Positions 2,630 to 22,954 are shown, counted from the stretch's first letter. The stretch: 26,412 bases of DNA from a virus (IMGVR_UViG_2529292890_000002:1-26412); one strand, 5' to 3'. Notes: generated by a model not told the origin, from the sequence alone. Numbers and translations: made by a program.

Positions 2630-3064
2630 ATGTTTAATAAACTGTTTGGAAAAAAAGTAGCAGCGGCAAAAGTTGAACTTAAGAAAGTGGAAAATCGCGA
2701 TCTGATGGAAGCTATTGTCGGCGGTTGCCTTTTGGTATCTGCCGCCGATGGCGAGATCGAAAAAGAAGAAACCAGCAAGCTGGATCAGCTTATCCGCTCT
2801 AACCCGCGCCTTGCGCATTTCGGCAATGAAATCACATCCACCATCAACCGCTATACGGAACAGCTTGAAGCTGGCTTCCGCGTTGGCCGCATGAACATTT
2901 TGCGCGAAATCGACGACATCAAAAACGATCCGAAAGAAGCCGAAGAAGTCTTCGTCAACATGCTGACTATCGCCGAAGCGGACGGCCAGATCGAACCGGA
3001 AGAACAGAAGGTGCTGGAAGAGGTAGGGCGCCGTCTGGGGCTGCGTGTTGAGGATTATCTCTGA
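2630..3064 (+). CDS. TerB-like (tellurite-resistance TerB family) domain protein
   Basis: Start at ATG 2630 (MFNKLFGKK, AGGA SD upstream); two ADG-I-E-EE segments (AADGEIEKEE and AEADGQIEPEE) typical of TerB-family helical proteins as recalled. Confidence 0.55.
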   Translation: MFNKLFGKKVAAAKVELKKVENRDLMEAIVGGCLLVSAADGEIEKEETSKLDQLIRSNPRLAHFGNEITSTINRYTEQLEAGFRVGRMNILREIDDIKNDPKEAEEVFVNMLTIAEADGQIEPEEQKVLEEVGRRLGLRVEDYL

Positions 3065-3246
3065 TGCTGCGCGTGCTGGATTCACTACGTCCGGCGCTGG
3101 CCCTGCTGTTGGCCTTCATGGTCGTAGCAGTGGATTTCACCAGCTACCTGCTTTCGGTGATTGGCGACGCCTTCTTCGTTGGCGCTCTTCTTCTCCTTGT
3201 CTGGCCTGCCCTCAAGTCAGCTAACCAATCAGCGGATCACCAGTAA
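3064..3246 (+). CDS. Small hydrophobic membrane protein, translationally coupled to the TerB-like gene
   Basis: ATG overlaps the upstream stop (TGATG); 60 aa with two hydrophobic stretches (ALALLLAFMVVAV, FFVGALLLLVWPAL). Confidence 0.4.
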   Translation: MLRVLDSLRPALALLLAFMVVAVDFTSYLLSVIGDAFFVGALLLLVWPALKSANQSADHQ

Positions 3247-3502: not shown

Positions 3503-4474
3503 ATGATCCGCCCGTTCATCAAATGGGCAGGGGGTAAAACCCGTGTCCTCCCTGACCTGCTGCCGCATCTTCCTAAAGCTGACTGCCTGATCGAACCGTT
3601 CGTAGGCGGCGCATCGGTATTTCTGGCGACTGAATACCGCCGCTATGTGCTGGCTGATATCAACCAGGATCTTATTAACCTGTATCGGGAAGTCACCCGT
3701 TACCCGGACTTAGTGATCGATGCTGCCCGCGAATTGTTCAACAGTAAGAATAGCCCGCAGGGATACAACGAAGTCCGTGCCGCGTTCAATAAGCAGGTGG
3801 GTACGGTAAAAAGCGGTGGGTTGCGTTATGGCGCTGAAATGGCGTGCATTATGCGCGCTGCTCAATTCCTGTATCTGAATCGCCACGGTTATAACGGCTT
3901 ATGTCGATACAGCCGGAAGACCGGCTTTAACGTGCCGTTTGGCAAGTATAAGAGCGTCTACTTTCCTGAAAATGAAATCCGCCTGTTTTCCGAAAAGGCC
4001 AACGATACAAAAGCAATATTTCTTTGTGCGCCGTTCCAGCGTTCTCTACAGGTCGTCACGGGTGGCGATGTTCTCGTTTACTGCGATCCGCCTTACCTGC
4101 CTGAAAGCAAAACAGCCGATTTTACCCAATACCACACCGAACCATTCACGGAAGGCAACCACCGCCAGTTAGTCCAGGCACTGCTGGAAGTTAACCGTAA
4201 GCATGGCGTGAAGGTCGTCATTTCCAACAGCGATACCGAAGCCACCCGCGCGATTTATCAGCCCTTCAAGATGCACGAAATCAGCGTGCAACGTTCCATC
4301 AGCACCGACAAAGACAACCGCCAGAAGGCCAAAGAAGTGATCGGCGTGCTGCCTGTCTGCGACTGCTGCGGGCGTTACGGCGGCGGTTGCCCTGATTGTG
4401 GCGCCGTGATGGGTGATGCGACTTACAACGCGATGGTTGCGGCGGGCGCGTTTGACGATCTGGAGGCTTTTTAA
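3503..4474 (+). CDS. dam: DNA adenine methyltransferase (Dam-like, N6-adenine class) with Cys-rich C-terminal extension
   Basis: N-terminal FIKWAGGK, then EPFVGGASVF (AdoMet-binding) and catalytic DPPY; C-terminal CDCCGRYGGGCPDCG extension. Confidence 0.85.
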   Translation: MIRPFIKWAGGKTRVLPDLLPHLPKADCLIEPFVGGASVFLATEYRRYVLADINQDLINLYREVTRYPDLVIDAARELFNSKNSPQGYNEVRAAFNKQVGTVKSGGLRYGAEMACIMRAAQFLYLNRHGYNGLCRYSRKTGFNVPFGKYKSVYFPENEIRLFSEKANDTKAIFLCAPFQRSLQVVTGGDVLVYCDPPYLPESKTADFTQYHTEPFTEGNHRQLVQALLEVNRKHGVKVVISNSDTEATRAIYQPFKMHEISVQRSISTDKDNRQKAKEVIGVLPVCDCCGRYGGGCPDCGAVMGDATYNAMVAAGAFDDLEAF

Positions 4475-4653: not shown

Positions 4654-7037
4654 CCACGGAAACCCGTGGCCGTCGCGCCCCTTCTCCACCTCCACCGTAT
4701 CCGGGTAGCACTGACAATGCTATCCCTTACGCTTATGGCGGGAACAAACCATACCAGCCGATTGGCGTTGATGTAGCGCCGGGGCTGGATGGTTTCGACT
4801 ATCTCACGCCGGATGGCACGCGTAAGCATATTGCGTTCAGTGAACTGGTAGCGGAAGACGAAAAGCCAGAACGCAGTAAGCTGCTGCGTCGCCGTCTGGC
4901 TTCACTTCCGCAGTATGTTCGCCGCCACTTTGCCGCGAAGCTTGATGCGCTGGACGCGAAAGACCGTAAAGCGGCAGATCACTGGCTGGTTAATACCTTT
5001 GAGCGCCACGTATTAACTCGTATTGATAACGTAAACAGCATTTACCAGCCTGACAGCGTGATGCCCGGTATTCTGCTGCCTATCCGCGATCAGCTTTTCC
5101 GTATTCTCTGGGCGGGAAAAAAAGAGTTAAAAAGACTGGCTTATACGCTTGCCGATATCTTTACGAGCGAGTTTATACGCGAGTCCGATCACCAGTTGGC
5201 GCACACCGGCGATCCAGAGTTTGCGGCACTTTCTGGCTATGGTCGTATTGCGTCGCTGGCGGTGCATCTGAAAACGCCGATTCCCGGCTGGACAGCGTAT
5301 TGCAATGAAGAACTTGAAGCGGAGGACGCGTTACGCGCGGTTCTTCGTCTTGAGTCACCGCAGTGGTGGTTAAACCGCCTGCGTCGTATCCATGCCCGCT
5401 GGCGCGAGCATTTGATGATCGCTACGGGATACGTACAGGTGAAAGCCTCTCCGTACAGTAGCGCACCGTGTCTTACGGAATGGCTGGCCCAGAAAAAGGC
5501 TAACCGTGAATACCTCAAGGCTATGGAACTGGAGGATCAGGACACGGGCGAACGCATTTCACTGATCGATAAAGTCGCCGGCAGTGTTGCCAATCCGGCC
5601 AATCGTCGCCGCGAACTCATGACGAGAATGCGCGGATTTGAAGAACTGGCGAAGCTGGAAGGGCTGGCCGGTGACTTCTACACGCTGACAGCGCCTTCCC
5701 GTTATCACTCTATGCAGCACAATGGTCTTCGCAATAATAAATACCGTGGTGCGTCGCCGCGCGAGACGCAGCAGTATCTTTGCAAAGTCTGGGCGAGAAC
5801 CCGCGCCGCGTGGAAGAGAAAAGGTATCCGGGTCTTTGGCTTTCGTGTGGTGGAACCGCACCACGATGCAACGCCGCACTGGCATTTGCTTCTTTTTATG
5901 CGCCCGGAATGCGTTGAGCAGGCGCGTGAAATCTTCCGTAAACATGCCCTGAAAGAAGACGGCAACGAACCGGGAGCGCAGGAAAACCGCTTTCAGGTTG
6001 TGCCGATCGATGAAGCCCACGGCAGCGCTACCGGCTATATAGCGAAATACATTTCGAAGAATATTGACGGCTTCGCGTTGGATGGCGAGAAGGACGATGA
6101 AACCGGGGAAGATCTGAAAGAAATGTCTCTCCGCGTTAGCGCGTGGGCGTCGCGCTGGTCTATTCGCCAGTTTCAGCAGATCGGCGGTGCGCCGGTCACG
6201 GTATATCGCGAGCTTCGCCGCTTGGGCGATCGCGAACTGGTGTTACACCCTGAACTGGAAACCGCCCGGCAGGCCGCTAACGGTGGCGAATGGGATAACT
6301 ACGTATTAGCCCAGGGTGGCCCGTTGGTTGAGCGCGATAAGCTGCGCATCCGTCTGAATTATGAAACCACTGAAAACGGCAACGCCTACGGCGATAACGT
6401 CCAGCGAATCACCGGTATCTATTGCCCGCTTACGGGTAATAACTCTTTGATCTTCACCCGCACCACTCAATACAAAATCGTGCCGAAGCGTCAGAGCGCT
6501 GACGGTGTGGCCGTTGACGTTGGTTTTTCAGGCGGCAGCGCCGCCCCTCGGAGTTCTGTCAATAACTGTACGCGGGATCCCGCGGCAGGTGCTGACGGTG
6601 TTGAACATGCCGCCAGCGAAGCTAAAGAACAGTCAGGAATGACTGTGCCAGCTGAGGGCGTGACGGTGAATTTTGATGCGCTTTCACGGCAGGAAAAGCG
6701 AGAACTGGCGCAGCGGCTTAGTGACGATGTGCGAAGTAAGCGTAAAAAACGGCCACTGGAACGGGAAGAGGGGGCCGGGCTATCCGTGAAAGAGCAGCAG
6801 ATCAGTGAACTGCTGGCGCTGCGTGGGATTGATGCCAGCGCCGGAATGGTCAGATCGATGATTGCGGGTGCGTCAGTGGCGTGCGGCGATCTTGTTATGA
6901 CCGTGCAGGACGGGCGGCTGGTATCGCGCAACCGCGCAGCGTCCGGGCTGGATAAGCTACCGTCGCAGGTGATGGCGGCGAAGCAAAAAACAAGTGATCT
7001 TGTGAACAGGATGAAAGCAGCATTTTCGCGGAACTAA
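4650..7037 (+). CDS. A: Replication initiation protein A (rolling-circle nicking initiator, P2 gpA-like)
   Basis: 795 aa; HUH-type motif HWHLLLF and paired catalytic tyrosines YIAKYISK (Y-x-x-K-Y); sits between the early genes and the cargo/cos region as in P2. Confidence 0.9.
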   Translation: MTTETRGRRAPSPPPPYPGSTDNAIPYAYGGNKPYQPIGVDVAPGLDGFDYLTPDGTRKHIAFSELVAEDEKPERSKLLRRRLASLPQYVRRHFAAKLDALDAKDRKAADHWLVNTFERHVLTRIDNVNSIYQPDSVMPGILLPIRDQLFRILWAGKKELKRLAYTLADIFTSEFIRESDHQLAHTGDPEFAALSGYGRIASLAVHLKTPIPGWTAYCNEELEAEDALRAVLRLESPQWWLNRLRRIHARWREHLMIATGYVQVKASPYSSAPCLTEWLAQKKANREYLKAMELEDQDTGERISLIDKVAGSVANPANRRRELMTRMRGFEELAKLEGLAGDFYTLTAPSRYHSMQHNGLRNNKYRGASPRETQQYLCKVWARTRAAWKRKGIRVFGFRVVEPHHDATPHWHLLLFMRPECVEQAREIFRKHALKEDGNEPGAQENRFQVVPIDEAHGSATGYIAKYISKNIDGFALDGEKDDETGEDLKEMSLRVSAWASRWSIRQFQQIGGAPVTVYRELRRLGDRELVLHPELETARQAANGGEWDNYVLAQGGPLVERDKLRIRLNYETTENGNAYGDNVQRITGIYCPLTGNNSLIFTRTTQYKIVPKRQSADGVAVDVGFSGGSAAPRSSVNNCTRDPAAGADGVEHAASEAKEQSGMTVPAEGVTVNFDALSRQEKRELAQRLSDDVRSKRKKRPLEREEGAGLSVKEQQISELLALRGIDASAGMVRSMIAGASVACGDLVMTVQDGRLVSRNRAASGLDKLPSQVMAAKQKTSDLVNRMKAAFSRN

Positions 7038-7195
7038 GCCGATATAAGCCGCTCTAAGAAGCAATTACCCATTTTCCACACAATCGAAATAGTTATGACT
7101 TTCGCCGTTTTCTGCTTATAGTGTGCGCGCTTTTGTGTCATAACTAAGCTAATAATAAATGGCATTTCGCTTACACACGCAGTTAGGAGGCTCTT

Positions 7196-8194
7196 ATGAC
7201 GAACCATAATCAGATGAGTCAGATATATTCTAAATTCGGCCGGGCCGGGTTTAATCTCTCTTACATCCGCAGGTTGTTGCCTGACTGGTGGGATGAGAAG
7301 CTTGCTGACACCCCATCAGGGCGCCAGTATGCGTGCCTGCACCTTGCGCGTATGTTTAGCATTCTCCCGGATAGCCTGAAAGATGGTAGCGAAGGGGTAT
7401 GCTTTAATTTTGGTGGAAACCATAAATATAAACATCGCCAAAATGTAGCCGAGAACGATTTAGATATCGCTACTGCTGTTGCCTATACTGCGGCCGGTAT
7501 TGTCGCGTCTAATTTCAAAGTCCCTTACGATGCCAGTGCAGTGCTGGATCCTTTGGCTATAAGAACCCAGATTCTTACTAAGGAATCATGGGTATCGCTA
7601 GATAGCCTGGTAACATACTGTCATTCGATTGGCATTCCTGTTGTTTATCTAAAATGCTTCCCTCAAGCTGCCAAAAAAATGGCCGGGCTGGCGCTAATGA
7701 GTCACGGGCGCCCGGTGATTGTTCTTACTCAGCCTCAGAAATATGGCTATATGCTGTTTGATCTCGCGCATGAGTTAGGCCATATCGCCAGAGGGCATCT
7801 GAACGCAGAAAACGGGCAGTGCCATATTGATGCAAAAATTGAGAATGCTTCGACGGACAACGTAGAGAAAGAAGCCAACGAATTCGCCTTCCAGGTCATT
7901 TCGGGGCAGAAGTCTTTACGTATCGTTCCTACCGCTGGCAGGTTGAATGGGCCTGGTTTGGCTCGCGCGGCTCAAAAGTTTGGAAGTGATAATCACATTG
8001 ACCCGACTCACATCGCTTTAAATTATGGTTTCGCGCAGAACTGCTGGGGCGCTGCTGTTAACGCTGTTAAAGCACTCTGTGCTGGTGAAGACTCAGATCA
8101 GGATTTTGTGAGGGCCATGATGAAAAGCGGGATGGATTTAGAAAATATCCACGAAGATGATCTTAAGGTTTTAGAAAATCTAATCGGGGAATAA
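7196..8194 (+). CDS. Cargo protein with ImmA/IrrE-type (M78-like) HEXXH metallopeptidase motif; N-terminal ~180 aa of unknown function
   Basis: Strong SD AGGAGG 5 nt before ATG; motif MLFDLAHELGHIARGHL; AT-rich by eye; own upstream promoter-like sequence. Confidence 0.6.
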   Translation: MTNHNQMSQIYSKFGRAGFNLSYIRRLLPDWWDEKLADTPSGRQYACLHLARMFSILPDSLKDGSEGVCFNFGGNHKYKHRQNVAENDLDIATAVAYTAAGIVASNFKVPYDASAVLDPLAIRTQILTKESWVSLDSLVTYCHSIGIPVVYLKCFPQAAKKMAGLALMSHGRPVIVLTQPQKYGYMLFDLAHELGHIARGHLNAENGQCHIDAKIENASTDNVEKEANEFAFQVISGQKSLRIVPTAGRLNGPGLARAAQKFGSDNHIDPTHIALNYGFAQNCWGAAVNAVKALCAGEDSDQDFVRAMMKSGMDLENIHEDDLKVLENLIGE

Positions 8195-8197
8195 TAA

Positions 8198-8836
8198 GTG
8201 ATTGTTCTTTCTGACAATGATGTCATTTTGAAGCTGGCCCAGTGCAATCTGTTATCACAACTGCCAGTGGTTTTTAACCAACCCCCCGAACAGATCTTCA
8301 TTAACCCTGCTGCTCGTTTTCAGCTTCTGCCGAAAAATCCTGATAAAGCAATCAGGAAGTGTGGTAGCCAGGTTGTTTACGAGCAGGTGGGAGCCTTCAT
8401 TGAATCTGTACAGGATATCCCGGAAGTTCAGGACTCACAGCTTATTGAGCTTTTGGGGAGTGTGCCCGGAATTGATGTAGGCGAACAGCTATTGCTTGCC
8501 TCGTGCATAGAGAACCCAGAAGCCATTTTCATGACTGGTGATCGCCGCTGTTTGACTGCAATTGTTGCAAACCAACCGGCCCTTTCCGTGATTCATCAGC
8601 GTTTACTGGATGCAGTTGTTACCTTTGAGTCGTCACTTTTGTTATGTGTCCACGGTACAGATCAGGCTCAAGTTTATGAAAATTTGGTGAGCAATCCTAA
8701 ACCTGACGGCATGTTGAAATTGGCTCTTTCAAACGCTGGCGCTGCAATGTGCGAATGTATCTTTTCCCATACTCGTGAGTTTTACGATTACCTTGCCTTC
8801 AAAGATCGACTTCCTGATCGGGAGTGGGGAAGGTAA
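8198..8836 (+). CDS. Cargo partner protein of unknown function (possible PIN-like fold, speculative)
   Basis: GTG start 3 nt after the upstream stop with GGGGA upstream; 212 aa; N-terminal IVLSDNDVILKL plus later acidic residues (IDVGEQ, FMTGDRR) loosely resemble PIN nucleases; followed by a terminator. Confidence 0.5.
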   Translation: MIVLSDNDVILKLAQCNLLSQLPVVFNQPPEQIFINPAARFQLLPKNPDKAIRKCGSQVVYEQVGAFIESVQDIPEVQDSQLIELLGSVPGIDVGEQLLLASCIENPEAIFMTGDRRCLTAIVANQPALSVIHQRLLDAVVTFESSLLLCVHGTDQAQVYENLVSNPKPDGMLKLALSNAGAAMCECIFSHTREFYDYLAFKDRLPDREWGR

Positions 8837-8842
8837 AAAATT

Positions 8843-8866
8843 AAGGGCTAACAAAGCCCTTTTTTA
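8843..8866 (+). terminator. Rho-independent terminator closing the cargo operon
   Basis: Stem AAGGGCT (8843-8849), loop AACAA, stem AGCCCTT (8855-8861), then a T-run (8860-8865); A-run upstream could allow bidirectional function. Confidence 0.6.
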
Positions 8867-8890
8867 TTGCGCCAAAAACACTGCAAAAAA

Positions 8891-8980
8891 TTGCACATAA
8901 ATGCACAAATATTTCGGCATTCGTATTATCACGACAGGCCAGACGGGGCGGGCCTTCCGGTGGTTTGCACATTTGCACAA
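8891..8980. repeat. Two copies of a TTGCACA-N-TGCACAA motif (8891-8908 and 8965-8980) flanking the cos-like site; candidate packaging or regulatory protein sites
   Basis: Seen directly: TTGCACATAAATGCACAA and TTGCACATTTGCACAA. Confidence 0.4.
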
Positions 8981-9002
8981 AAAAGCGGGGTTTCTGCGTG
9001 CG

Positions 9003-9021
9003 GGCGAGGCGGGGGAATGAG
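9003..9021. other. Probable cos (cohesive-end) site
   Basis: GGCGAGGCGGGGGAATGAG matches the start of the P2 cos sequence (GGCGAGGCGGGGAAAGCAC, recalled from memory); position between the cargo and Q is as in P2. Confidence 0.5.
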
Positions 9022-9231
9022 CGCGCGCTGAGGGGTGGGATAGGGTCGGTATTATCTGCGCCGATTTTCGCGCCGCTGCGCCTCGCTGCTGCGTCGTTTT
9101 CGGTTCGCTGTGGTGGTTTGAGGCAAAAGAAAAGCCCCTGCCAGCGGGCTGCTGAGGGGCTTACGTGCGGTGTGGTCAGTTGCGGCCGTGCTGGCCGTTC
9201 CACGGTGGTGGTGGGTGTGTCCGGGCTGGCG

Positions 9232-10281
9232 TCAGATTGCTGCCTGCAACAGTGCGTAAGGGTTGAAGCGCACCACGTCGATCCCCAGCCAGTCGTTTAA
9301 CTCTTTCAGGCTTTCTTGTATCGGGGCCAGTTCGTTGATGGAAAACACCTTCGCCGCTTTCTCTACGTCGCCGAAGCCACCGGAGTTATTCGGCATTACC
9401 CCCATCAGAACGGGCGGCACGCGGTGCGCGGCTAACAGGTCGTCGCGGGTGGCGTCTTTGATGCCGGTAAACTCATCCTTCGCCGCCACCTGGCTGAACG
9501 GCATAATTTGCAGGCCGTCTTTTTTCCCGCCCGCCGCGTAGACAAACAGGTTTTTAAAAGCACCGTTGCCGCGTGCATCTTTCAGCGACTTCTTAAGCTT
9601 TTCCACATCGTTATTATTCGCCACCGGGTCAGTGAGGTAGACGATCACACCCGCATGACTGCCGTTAATGTAGTAGTTGCGGCGGAACACCGTTGCTTCA
9701 CCGTTCAGCATGGCGCTTTGTAGCGCGGCCAGATATTCCGGCGCGCCGTAGATCTCCTGGTGCGGGCTGGGGTTCTTGATCTGGCAGACGCTGCCCGGTT
9801 CGAACGCGTGATCGTCAACGTAGCGCGGAACAAACCAGAATTGAGCCGGGTCTATGCCGCGACGCGTATATTTCGCTTGGCTGTGCCGCAGTTCAATCGG
9901 CTGGCCGAGTCGGTTGCGGCGGCATTCCATGTAACAGTTACCGAAAATTAAATAATCCTGCACCCAGGCGGTGAACTCCTGCCGGGTCAATAGCGGGTGT
10001 GGTATGTAGCAACTGGCGATAACATTGCGTTTAAATATCAGCGGTGACTGGTGATAGGCGGCAACGTCGAACATGCGCGCAAGCCCGTAGGGGCTGATCG
10101 GTGGTTCATACCAGCGGCCATTGTTATGGCATTCGAGGCACTCCATAAGAGACGCGCGATCGTTGACTGCGATCGGGTCGCCAAAGCTGAAAGATTCCAC
10201 GCTTTCCAGCGGGGTGGCTGCGTTGCTGGCCGTGCTGGCTGGCGCAGCAGTTGGCGCCCTGAATTTCTTTTTGCCGCTCAA
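9232..10281 (-). CDS. Q: Portal protein (P2 gpQ-like)
   Basis: 349 aa directly downstream of P on the same strand; first codon is TTG next to the P stop; overall resemblance to P2 portal as recalled. Confidence 0.85.
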   Translation of the reverse strand: MSGKKKFRAPTAAPASTASNAATPLESVESFSFGDPIAVNDRASLMECLECHNNGRWYEPPISPYGLARMFDVAAYHQSPLIFKRNVIASCYIPHPLLTRQEFTAWVQDYLIFGNCYMECRRNRLGQPIELRHSQAKYTRRGIDPAQFWFVPRYVDDHAFEPGSVCQIKNPSPHQEIYGAPEYLAALQSAMLNGEATVFRRNYYINGSHAGVIVYLTDPVANNNDVEKLKKSLKDARGNGAFKNLFVYAAGGKKDGLQIMPFSQVAAKDEFTGIKDATRDDLLAAHRVPPVLMGVMPNNSGGFGDVEKAAKVFSINELAPIQESLKELNDWLGIDVVRFNPYALLQAAI

Positions 10282-21286: not shown

Positions 21287-22358
21287 ATATTATGCCGTGC
21301 TAACCAATGTGGGCGCAGCGAAACTGGCAAATGCCACGGCATTGGGTGCGCAGGTTGAGATCACCCAGATGGCTGTAGGCGATGGTAACGGCGCATTGCC
21401 GACGCCGAACCCGGCACAAACGGCGCTGGTTCATGAGTTGCGCCGCGCGCCACTCAATACCCTGAGCATTGATCCGAACAACGCCAACCAGATTATTGCC
21501 GAACAGGTGATCCACGAAGACGTGGGCGGGTGGTGGATCCGTGAAATCGGCTTATTCGATAAAGACGGCGATATGATTGCCGTAGCCAACTGCGCGGAAA
21601 CCTATAAGCCGCAGTTGCAGGAAGGTAGCGGGCGCGTTCAGATTGTCCGCATGATCCTGATAGTCAGCAGCACCGCCGCCGTGACTCTGAAAATTGACCC
21701 TTCGGTAGTGCTGGCAACGCGCCAGTATGTTGATGATCAGATAATCCAGGTGAAAGCCTATGTTGATCAGCAACTGGCGGCGCATGTGGCTGCGGCTGAT
21801 CCTCATGCGCAATATTTGCTTGAGTCGGATTTTGATAAATTTTTCCCGGTAGGTTTTCCGCTTCCGTGGCCGCAGGCAACGCCGCCAGGCGGCTGGCTTA
21901 AATGCAATGGTGCAACGTTCGATAAGGTCAAATATCCGAAGCTGGCGACGGCTTACCCTTCTGGCGTATTACCAGATTTGCGCGGTGAGTTTTTGAGAGG
22001 TTGGGATGATGGGCGTGGGGTTGATGTAAACCGAGTATTGTTAAGTTCCCAGAGTGAGGATTTAAAGGGCCATCGGCATGAGTCCTATTTCTATGCGGGG
22101 ATCAGCAGAAATGAAGTGCCTTTAACTAGCTTGGATAGTTCGTGTGAAATGCTAACATTAAGCTCAACAACCAATGCACTCGCACCAACGGATATAGATA
22201 CCAGCGGCACTCTTATCGGTAATGATGATTATAACTGTCTGGCCGAAGGTAATAAAAACAACAAACGAACTGCAACAGGATTAAGTTCCACCATTGTAGG
22301 TGGAGGCGAAACTCGTCCGCGAAACGTATCATTTAATTATATCGTGAGGGCTGCATAA
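21276..22358 (+). CDS. H: Tail fibre protein H (short, about 360 aa) with AT-rich distal part
   Basis: Start at GTG 21276 (GGAG 7 nt upstream; track's first codon is TTG at 21255); N-terminus ATKYYAVLTNVGAAKLANA...MAVGDGNG resembles the conserved P2 gpH N-terminus as recalled. Confidence 0.75.
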   Translation: MATKYYAVLTNVGAAKLANATALGAQVEITQMAVGDGNGALPTPNPAQTALVHELRRAPLNTLSIDPNNANQIIAEQVIHEDVGGWWIREIGLFDKDGDMIAVANCAETYKPQLQEGSGRVQIVRMILIVSSTAAVTLKIDPSVVLATRQYVDDQIIQVKAYVDQQLAAHVAAADPHAQYLLESDFDKFFPVGFPLPWPQATPPGGWLKCNGATFDKVKYPKLATAYPSGVLPDLRGEFLRGWDDGRGVDVNRVLLSSQSEDLKGHRHESYFYAGISRNEVPLTSLDSSCEMLTLSSTTNALAPTDIDTSGTLIGNDDYNCLAEGNKNNKRTATGLSSTIVGGGETRPRNVSFNYIVRAA

Positions 22359-22954
22359 TGACGCAGGCAGAATTAAACAGCGAACTTATTGCTACTGTGG
22401 CAGGTGATATCACGGTATTCAATTACGATGGGGAAACACGCGAATATTTAACTTCAATGGTTGAATATCTGGCGGAAGGTGTTGGCCTTCCTGCAAATTC
22501 ATGCACCGATGCGCCAAGCGAAAGTAAAGAGGGATTTGCTATTTGTCGAACAGCAGATTTTACCGCATGGGAATACGTCGCCGATCACCGTGGTGAAACG
22601 GTATACAGCACTAAAACAGGCGAATCGGAGATCGTTTCTTTGCCTGGCGATTACCCGGAGGGTACTACCACGCTGGCACCTTCGACACCTTACGATACGT
22701 GGAACGGTAGCGAGTGGGTAACAGATACGGAAACGCAGCACGCGGCGGACGTGGAAGCGGCGGAGCAACAGAAAGCTGCGCTACTCCTTGAGGCGCAGGC
22801 AACGATCAGTCTATGGCAGACGGAGCTACAGTTAGGCATTATCAGCGATGAAGATAAAGCCAGCCTGATCGCCTGGATGAACTACATCAAAGCCGTGCAG
22901 GCGGTGGATACCTCGAAAGCGCCGGATATCACCTGGCCGGATAAGCCGGAATAA
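22358..22954 (+). CDS. G: Tail fibre assembly protein G (Tfa-like)
   Basis: 198 aa; start overlaps the H stop (TAATG); directly downstream of the fibre gene. Confidence 0.8.
   Translation: MTQAELNSELIATVAGDITVFNYDGETREYLTSMVEYLAEGVGLPANSCTDAPSESKEGFAICRTADFTAWEYVADHRGETVYSTKTGESEIVSLPGDYPEGTTTLAPSTPYDTWNGSEWVTDTETQHAADVEAAEQQKAALLLEAQATISLWQTELQLGIISDEDKASLIAWMNYIKAVQAVDTSKAPDITWPDKPE

Follow-up and report, generated by a model that had tools for sequence, protein, structure and literature searches.

Several described systems combine a zinc peptidase of the M78 type (ImmA/IrrE, COG2856 or DUF955) with a toxin. In a count by Makarova (2009) there were 60 COG2856-PIN gene pairs, for which a three-component toxin-antitoxin system was predicted, and Matelska (2017) described the DUF4411, COG2405, PIN_14, PIN_20 and PIN_26 families as PIN-like toxins co-transcribed with helix-turn-helix (HTH) and DUF955 genes; our search of the literature found no demonstrated mechanism for these predicted COG2856-PIN systems. 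RosmerTA, which consists of a Zn-peptidase antitoxin and a toxin whose function is unknown, was validated by Millman (2022); its component RmrA is a validated antitoxin for diverse toxins, and RosmerTA systems protect against phages (Ernits 2023; Millman 2022). In the RosmerTA zone the ImmA-protease antitoxins pair with variable toxins, PIN-like ones included (Ernits 2023), and a dependence on ClpXP/ClpP has been reported for Rosmer-type toxins. The slot between gene A (gpA) and cos of P2 harbours many validated defence systems (Rousset 2022; Vassallo 2022). Here we analyse a two-gene cassette (~7038-8880) that occupies this slot in a viral sequence of 26,412 nucleotides (nt), IMGVR_UViG_2529292890_000002:1-26412, which is called the window below and to which the coordinates refer. 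The upstream open reading frame (ORF1) encodes an M78 zinc metallopeptidase and the downstream one (ORF2) a PIN-like protein.

In the P2 gene A-to-cos anti-phage hotspot the cassette forms a two-gene module that is self-contained and exchanged horizontally. The architecture, an M78 peptidase with a PIN protein, is already known, and the pair itself is a distinct, strictly paired family. As judged from sequence analysis, three features distinguish it from its relatives: no HTH can be detected by sequence, the N-terminal domain, with its invariant LPxWW motif, could not be placed, and the family of the PIN-like protein lies outside Pfam and PADLOC. The pair is already listed by Rousset (2022), without a name or a phenotype test, in a supplement where two P2 hotspot loci are entered as 'Peptidase_M78 + hypothetical: WP_000181463 + ...' and 'WP_052929074 + WP_052929073'. 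The first accession is ORF1 of the window and the last two are the pair of strain 81009. The 'Peptidase + TM' construct (pFR104) tested in the same study was considered as a possible version of the pair and ruled out, being a 161-aa (amino acid) M78 peptidase with a membrane protein. Our literature searches gave no phenotype or experiment on the pair, and a search by accession number gave no paper. An earlier interpretation of the window, made from its nucleotides alone (the sequence-only reading), had called the module a candidate for an undescribed one; this goes too far, since the architecture was predicted in 2009 and 2017 and the pair was listed in 2022.

On balance, we favour the view that the pair is a toxin-antitoxin-like phage-exclusion (abortive infection) module in which ORF2 would be the effector and ORF1 its controller. 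This view is based on the location in the P2 hotspot together with the conserved peptidase and the conserved PIN-like protein, and it has a precedent, since COG2856-PIN operons are predicted toxin-antitoxin systems and RosmerTA protects against phages. A specialist would expect hotspot cargo of such composition to be a defence or toxin-antitoxin module, and a sensor/effector or toxin-antitoxin-like defence role, as proposed in the sequence-only reading, is still the most plausible one, with the phenotype being what we infer.

Layout of the cassette and its two proteins

Over the cassette, the window matches a P2-like prophage of E. coli MS 57-2, integrated beside cpxP, with 100% identity. Exactly two sizeable ORFs, both on the plus strand, are found between gene A and the cos-like site. 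The features are as follows.

Stop at 7037: gene A (replication endonuclease), left flank of the cassette
7090-7099 and 7137-7146: perfect 10-nt inverted repeat (TAGTTATGAC and GTCATAACTA) bracketing the promoter-like site
7095-7122, plus strand: sigma-70-like promoter, -35 ATGACT at 7095, 16-nt spacer, -10 TATAGT ending at 7122, 9 of 12 consensus matches
7184-7189, plus strand: Shine-Dalgarno sequence AGGAGG, 6 nt before the ATG of ORF1
7196-8194, plus strand: ORF1, ATG start, 332 aa, M78 (ImmA/IrrE-type) zinc metallopeptidase
7196-7549, plus strand: ORF1 N-terminal domain, aa 1-118, with invariant P29, W31 and W32 (LPxWW motif)
7595-7903, plus strand: M78 peptidase core of ORF1, aa ~134-236, HELGH at 7769-7783 (H192, E193, H196), Glu224 at 7865-7867
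7949-8182, plus strand: ORF1 C-terminal five-helix bundle, aa 252-329, from the AlphaFold2 (AF2) secondary structure, with a conserved DPxHIxLNYG motif
8198-8836, plus strand: ORF2, GTG start, 212 aa, coupled to ORF1, PIN-like nuclease-fold protein with a C-terminal helical extension
8198-8647, plus strand: PIN-like core of ORF2, aa 1 to ~150
8648-8833, plus strand: ORF2 C-terminal helical extension, aa ~151-212, with conserved NPKPDG, C187 and S190
8843-8869, plus strand: rho-independent terminator-like hairpin (8843-8861; 7-bp stem, 5-nt loop) with a T-run
9003-9022: cos-like site GGCGAGGCGGGGGAATGAGC, 3' of the cassette
9232-10281, minus strand: portal gene

The stop codon of ORF1 (TAA) is followed by a second TAA and then by the GTG of ORF2, a start that is backed by the observation that all ORF2 homologues begin at the same MIVLSDND position. 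The GC content of the cassette is 0.44-0.49 (~0.46) against 0.55-0.61 (~0.57) in the flanks, and the comparison with near-identical backbones carrying a 55%-identical allele places the left border at the gpA stop codon and the right border at 8881-8914. The low GC content, the cassette's own promoter, Shine-Dalgarno sequence and terminator, and the borders mapped in this way make up a signature of cargo. The sequence-only reading was accurate in its main points: the lengths, the GTG start and the coupling of the two ORFs of the compact operon in the A-to-cos slot were exactly as it claimed, and the AGGAGG, the terminator hairpin and the AT-rich composition were all found again. The GGAGG of the ORF1 Shine-Dalgarno sequence is kept in homologous loci, and the hairpin reads as a terminator on the minus strand too.

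The promoter-like site at 7095-7122 is there and its -10 element, with the surroundings, is kept in the E. coli, Salmonella and Erwinia copies, also where the proteins are only ~55% identical; the number of promoter-like sites in the region (4 vs. 2.7 ± 1.7 in shuffled sequences) is not significant by count alone. The inverted repeat overlaps the -35 element with its left arm and has its right arm ~15 nt downstream of the -10 element; the Salmonella copy (proteins ~55% identical) keeps all of the right arm and part of the left one. The repeat (7090-7146) is a candidate operator. A LexA-box-like site was sought in 7038-7195 and none was found, on which ground SOS control of the operon was rejected. 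An Rfam scan of 6800-9400 gave no RNA family within the cassette.

ORF1 is the RefSeq protein WP_000181463.1, annotated as 'ImmA/IrrE family metallo-endopeptidase', and it carries MLFDLAHELGHIARGHL. The PF06114 (Peptidase_M78) profile matches its residues 146-233 with 32.1 bits (gathering cut-off 22; E 1.1e-7) and is matched by all 65 members of the ORF1 family, among which H192, E193, H196, E224, H201 and D212 are invariant, down to 31% identity; the active site of the peptidase is therefore under selection. The HEXXH region was aligned with another M78 peptidase by hhalign, and the ORF1 model resembles the solved M78 members in fold, CapP and IrrE being the closest. The family phrog_18577 is matched over the whole length of ORF1. 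The PADLOC matches (PD-Lambda-2_B as the best one, E 9e-10, capP, and twelve RmrA models) cover the peptidase core only, as do those of the NCBIfam spr1629 repressor/antitoxin and phrog_2439; the proteins behind these library matches are of comparable length, and the M78 core has a similar relative position in them.

The remaining parts of ORF1 appear to be peculiar to the family. In the N-terminal domain, which has no relative in Pfam or among the PDB sequences, the AF2 model has five short helices within residues 6-62. In the C-terminal part P270, L275, N276 and Y277 are at least 90% conserved; a GAF domain was sought there in the AF2 model (residues 252-329), which shows five helices and no beta-rich domain. 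No Xre/HTH family of Pfam matches any of the 65 members; an HTH is hinted at weakly by structure and is not detectable by sequence. The description given in the sequence-only reading, of an M78/ImmA-IrrE peptidase with a HEXXH domain, without a recognisable Xre-type HTH and with an N-terminal region that could not be placed, agrees with all these results.

ORF2 gave no match in Pfam, NCBIfam or PADLOC (E ≤ 1) and only one family, of 'unknown function', in PHROGs; no family of Pfam, DUF4411 and DUF3368 included, matched its 54 relatives or 10 distant ones. Only one member of the ORF2 family (P0235) has 'PIN domain-containing protein' as its UniRef name. The AlphaFold model of ORF2 is very confident (predicted local distance difference test score, pLDDT, 94.2), and the predicted fold, a three-layer alpha/beta/alpha arrangement with a parallel sheet, has the characters of a PIN domain and is closest to the VapC toxins. 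In the Foldseek search of the PDB the PIN proteins rank first, with E-values of 0.12-0.25. We therefore regard ORF2 as PIN-like with good but not complete confidence, because these E-values are poor, though PIN proteins hold the first ranks. The loose PIN likeness that had been noticed in the sequence-only reading is thus borne out by the predicted fold, and by no sequence profile.

The conserved sites of ORF2 are D6, N7 and D8 after strand 1, Q42 after strand 2, D93, G95 and E96 at a helix N-terminus, T113-G114-D115 after strand 3, and T142-F-E144-S after strand 4. In the family alignment the N-terminal DND(I/V)ILKLAQC, G95-E96 and T-G-D115 are invariant and T-F-E144-S is nearly so; D6, E96 and D115 are invariant as single residues, E144 is conserved in at least 90%, and D6, D8, E96, D115 and E144 are invariant or nearly invariant across 54 sequences. 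In the model these acids are found at positions like those of a PIN active site, at the C-termini of strands or at the N-terminus of the helix before strand 3. When the order of the secondary-structure elements is compared with Shigella VapC (D7, E42, D98, E119), the conserved Gln of ORF2, Q42, seems to take the place of the canonical second acidic residue of PIN domains.

Pairing, distribution and exchange

In all 40 loci examined, the ORF1 family gene lies directly upstream of the ORF2 family gene on the same strand, with a gap of 0-11 nt or an overlap. The survey of the slot in related prophages, which the sequence-only reading had recommended, places the pair between gpA and the portal gene of P2-like prophages, with gpA 33-100% identical, in 28 of these loci, and the slot content is variable. 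The P2-like prophages carrying the pair belong to Enterobacterales. The other 12 loci have no recognised P2 context; besides Pseudomonas sp. ML96, their sources are metagenomic chromosomes and three viral contigs unlike P2. Several of the non-P2 copies occupy chromosomal sites among housekeeping or defence-like genes; one of them (L005) is a clean insertion among housekeeping genes with no HTH neighbour. A distant pair (L038, 1-9131) consists of a 342-aa peptidase and a 376-aa PIN-like protein with an extra C-terminal region, and its neighbours encode a T5orf172/MUG113 protein, DUF6602, a Cap4-nuclease-like/AAA_22/SEC-C protein and an N6_N4 methyltransferase; this neighbourhood looks like a defence island.

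An exhaustive profile search of 1.84 billion proteins yielded 1,543 clusters of the ORF2 family at 50% identity, and nearly all of the 150 best-scoring clusters are 195-235 residues long. Prophage-derived IMG/VR contigs commonly carry the pair, and none of the 50,697 deposited phage genomes searched by megablast and tblastn does. It was found in 3 of 72,556 plasmid records, two of which are doubtful (one record of 5.4 Mb and one of the size of a phage, 32.6 kb). This near-absence argues against a plasmid-addiction role, which we reject. The phage-sized record, NC_015969.1 (Enterobacter soli, 32,574 bp, deposited as a plasmid), has an ORF2 of 97% identity at 21728-22360, and its size suggests that it is a P2-like phage genome, either episomal or misassigned, rather than a true plasmid.

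Both ORFs have a ratio of non-synonymous to synonymous substitution rates (dN/dS) of 0.03-0.10 against four E. coli-type alleles, which indicates that they are real genes under strong purifying selection. In distant pairs ORF1 is much better conserved (1e-108 to 1e-119) than ORF2 (1e-32 to 1e-39). Across the loci, the two proteins vary together in their identity to the window copy, with a single exception, a natural chimera (L022, 4957-6636). Its ORF1 is 55% identical to that of the window and 80-90% identical to the other clade, and its ORF2 shares 87% identity with the window copy. Combinations of partners from different clades are therefore possible.

Near-identical phage backbones carry divergent alleles of the cassette, as is expected of cassette-like replacement, and traces of the exchange may have been preserved in two loci. 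In a Salmonella locus (L008, ~5820-5845) the last ~19 nt of gene A (AGCATTTT..CGGAACTAA; 7019-7050 in the window) are repeated at the left end of the cassette; gene A of this locus itself ends 750 nt upstream of the cassette and another ORF intervenes. In an E. coli-type locus (L027, ~4643) there is a shorter trace, since blastn aligns it with the cassette from a point 8 nt within the gene A of the window, and this trace sits ~900 nt downstream of the locus's own gene A. We take these copies for a scar that an exchange of cassettes at the 3' end of gpA has left.

Other variable elements were seen in the course of this comparison. The early operon of the window has, between fil and the methylase gene, a TerB-family gene and a DUF3927 gene (2630-3246), both of which are missing from the otherwise similar prophage of E. 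coli 81009; this prophage has DUF4406 and a cytosine methyltransferase before gene A, so that 2630-3246 is a second variable cargo position in these P2-like phages. The adenine-methylase-like ORF at 3503-4474 is intact in the window (323 aa), and its RefSeq counterpart is represented by two partial pseudogene fragments. At 9129-9273, a stretch that separates cos from the portal gene, Rfam gives a match below threshold to the Burkholderia small RNA Bp2_287 (23.6 bits vs. gathering 70, E 0.014), which overlaps a minus-strand terminator-like hairpin and is probably due to chance. In two unrelated non-P2 contexts, Pseudomonas sp. ML96 (L003, 3754-5170) and a metagenomic contig (L007, 7669-9062), a gene for a BpsA_C protein (PF01861, ~280 aa) and an unannotated gene for a protein of ~190 aa form a pair within a few kb of the M78/PIN-like pair. 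These two genes may be a further mobile or defence module of small size; the idea that they are a known defence system was dropped, since PADLOC gave no match.

Comparison with described systems

RosmerTA resembles the pair in having two genes, one of which encodes a partner with an ImmA/M78 zinc-peptidase domain, and in being often prophage-borne, and the M78 core of ORF1 (aa 134-233) aligns with positions ~140-250 of RmrA models that are 357-400 positions long. RmrA, however, frequently though not universally has an N-terminal Xre HTH, whereas ORF1 has none that is detectable by sequence, and RmrA pairs with many unrelated toxins, whereas the ORF1 family occurs with one PIN-like family only (40/40 loci). 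The predicted COG2856/DUF955-PIN systems share with the pair the position of the M78 peptidase gene immediately 5' of a co-transcribed PIN-like gene, and such operons are abundant in phages and prophages. These systems are, however, defined by an Xre HTH, either fused or present as a stand-alone third component, and none was detected in the cassette; moreover, ORF2 and its 63 relatives match no Pfam PIN family, including DUF4411 and DUF3368 (COG2405). PD-lambda-2 (Vassallo 2022), a toxin-antitoxin-like abortive infection system from E. coli mobile elements, has an ImmA/IrrE peptidase like the pair, but it has three genes (for a HigB-like protein, an Xre-peptidase and a relative of a P4 antitoxin) and no PIN protein, and its peptidase protein is the toxic component.

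The M78 peptidases that act in the regulatory switches differ from ORF1 both in partner and in domain composition. In CapP/CapH, IrrE(PprI)/DdrO and ImmA/ImmR the substrate is an HTH repressor encoded by an adjacent gene, whereas the neighbour of ORF1 is a PIN-like gene in 40/40 loci. The switches of CapP, IrrE and ImmA regulate via this repressor; the partner of ORF1 is a predicted nuclease and not a regulated operon. IrrE and CapP also have a C-terminal GAF domain, unlike ORF1 with its all-helical C-terminus, and they sense single-stranded DNA in the groove between the peptidase and the GAF domain (CapP preprint).

In VapBC the upstream gene of the controller is likewise followed by a translationally coupled PIN gene. 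The VapBC antitoxin, however, is a small ribbon-helix-helix, AbrB or Phd protein, whereas ORF1 is an enzyme of 332 aa. Compared to VapC, ORF2 is ~80 residues longer, with inserted helices and the C-terminal extension; it lacks sequence-profile similarity and probably has a Gln at the position of the canonical Glu. The old/tin genes of P2 and other gpA-cos cargo share with the pair the slot and the cassette-like replacement between near-identical backbones, while the proteins of old/tin are unrelated to ORF1 and ORF2. Old is an ATPase/TOPRIM nuclease, and Tin targets the single-stranded DNA-binding protein of T-even phages.

Probable function of the pair

In the toxin-antitoxin-like exclusion module that we favour, ORF2 would be a PIN-like metal-dependent nuclease and the toxic effector, cutting RNA (possibly DNA) and thereby halting the infected cell. 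ORF1, the M78 zinc peptidase with its family-specific N- and C-terminal domains, would be the upstream and more highly expressed controller; it is translated first, from a strong Shine-Dalgarno sequence, and ORF2 from a coupled GTG. In the lysogen ORF1 would prevent ORF2 from doing harm, and infection by a competing phage would make ORF1 release it; the control over ORF2 may be exerted by stoichiometric binding, by proteolytic processing of ORF2 and/or by autorepression at the inverted repeat that brackets the promoter. The gene structure, the M78 motif, the predicted PIN-like fold, the strict pairing, the selection, the slot and the exchange are observed facts from which we infer the toxicity, the neutralisation, the trigger and the anti-phage effect.

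A more specific and rather doubtful variant is a protease-gated nuclease, in which the HTH-less M78 peptidase would sense a phage product via its LPxWW and C-terminal helical domains and would switch the PIN-like nuclease by proteolysis. ORF1 might activate the nuclease by removing the C-terminal extension of ORF2 or, alternatively, might cease a continuous inactivating cleavage of ORF2; in both cases it would be an enzymatic controller and not a stoichiometric antitoxin. Such gating would fit the L022 chimera and the strict one-to-one pairing (40/40 loci; ~1,500 ORF2-family clusters), and because of this inter-clade chimera and the ClpXP/ClpP dependence of Rosmer-type toxins an enzymatic relationship between ORF1 and ORF2 is worth testing.

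Several results weigh against the exclusion module as we picture it. By hidden Markov models the pair is not a member of RosmerTA, because no PADLOC model, and hence no RmrT family, matches ORF2 and the matches of the twelve RmrA models to ORF1 are weak (E 4.6e-6 to 3.8e-3) and limited to the peptidase core (aa ~134-241). In the Rosmer-type module of E. coli E101 the toxin gene is located upstream, which is the opposite of the order in the pair. ORF2 is present in neither PADLOC nor NCBIfam; its profile found nothing among the PDB sequences, hhalign of its family with Shigella VapC (3TND; the query was a sequence identical to it) gave no alignment, and Foldseek gave no PDB match at E ≤ 0.001, the best one being a PIN protein at E 0.12. 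Since Q42 apparently occupies a canonical acidic position, the nuclease activity of ORF2 is not assured, and since ORF1 has no detectable HTH, autoregulation is speculative. The chimera argues against a tightly co-evolved, allele-specific binding interface. Finally, the Xre-peptidase of PD-lambda-2 is itself toxic, therefore the roles of toxin and antitoxin could be reversed in the pair.

Such a reversal, with ORF1 as a toxic effector that cleaves an essential host protein or is toxic alone, and ORF2 as a neutraliser, accessory or sensor without nuclease activity, seems unlikely to us. It would agree with the far better conservation of ORF1 than of ORF2 in distant pairs, with the conserved Gln apparently found at the position of the canonical PIN Glu, and with the observation that several distant ORF1 homologues also match PF10463 (Peptidase_U49, the Lit family). 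Lit cleaves EF-Tu upon infection. A parallel is PD-lambda-2B (Xre + peptidase), which is toxic alone and is rescued by its partner (Vassallo 2022). The near-invariance of D6, D8, E96, D115 and E144 across the 54 ORF2 sequences is nevertheless hard to explain for a mere binding partner, the order of an ORF1 with ATG and a strong Shine-Dalgarno sequence and a downstream ORF2 with GTG is the usual antitoxin-then-toxin layout, and in the published M78-PIN predictions it is the PIN protein that is the toxin (Makarova 2009; Matelska 2017).

It is likewise unlikely that the pair is a purely selfish addiction module, acting as a toxin-antitoxin pair for its own stability or that of the prophage and with no meaningful anti-phage activity. 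The two-gene toxin-antitoxin-like architecture, the isolated insertion among housekeeping genes (L005) and the cassette-like mobility with recombination scars would all be compatible with it; however, plasmids, on which addiction modules thrive, hardly ever carry the pair, the slot in which it recurs shows an enrichment of validated defence systems, and the toxin-antitoxin systems with M78 antitoxins that have been tested did protect against phages (Ernits 2023; Millman 2022).

The third alternative, a module of prophage regulation, appears improbable. ORF1 would then be an anti-repressor protease that controls induction by cleaving the P2-type immunity repressor or another HTH protein. The characterised M78 relatives with a known substrate (ImmA, IrrE, CapP) do all cleave an HTH repressor, CapP and IrrE are the closest folds to ORF1, and the HTH repressor gene of the prophage lies ~6 kb away. 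The Tum antirepressor of phage 186, encoded in the same genome region, would be an analogue. Nevertheless, the cassette itself contains no repressor gene, and confident homology of the pair to an ImmA/ImmR-type induction regulator, which the sequence-only reading had considered, was not found: the partner is always the PIN-like gene (40/40 loci) and never a repressor. A copy outside prophages has no HTH neighbour (L005), the pair is present in P2-like phages with gpA only 33-60% identical and hence with very different backbones, and neither a GAF domain nor a LexA box was seen. The least probable alternative, to which we give very little weight, is an offensive or counter-defence function in which the pair, instead of keeping out competing phages, would aid the P2-like phage or its host in some other conflict and would degrade, e.g., transcripts or proteins of a satellite (P4) or of host defences: phage hotspots also carry anti-defence genes and nothing in the sequence speaks against it, but copies of the pair also lie at chromosomal sites that are not of phage, in one case with defence-like genes as neighbours (L038), and no similarity to known anti-defence proteins was seen.

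The interest of the toxin-antitoxin-like exclusion module that we favour stems from the fact that the family is large and yet invisible to current defence-finding models. If it were confirmed, the phage-borne anti-phage modules would gain a peptidase-nuclease system that is compact (1.8 kb), widespread and strictly paired, one of the 'Peptidase_M78 + hypothetical' entries of the hotspot would become a named system, and DefenseFinder and PADLOC models could be made to detect the family that they now miss. The pair would also provide a tractable E. coli model for the role of the M78 peptidase, as a sensor, an antitoxin or an activator, in the RosmerTA/COG2856-PIN class.

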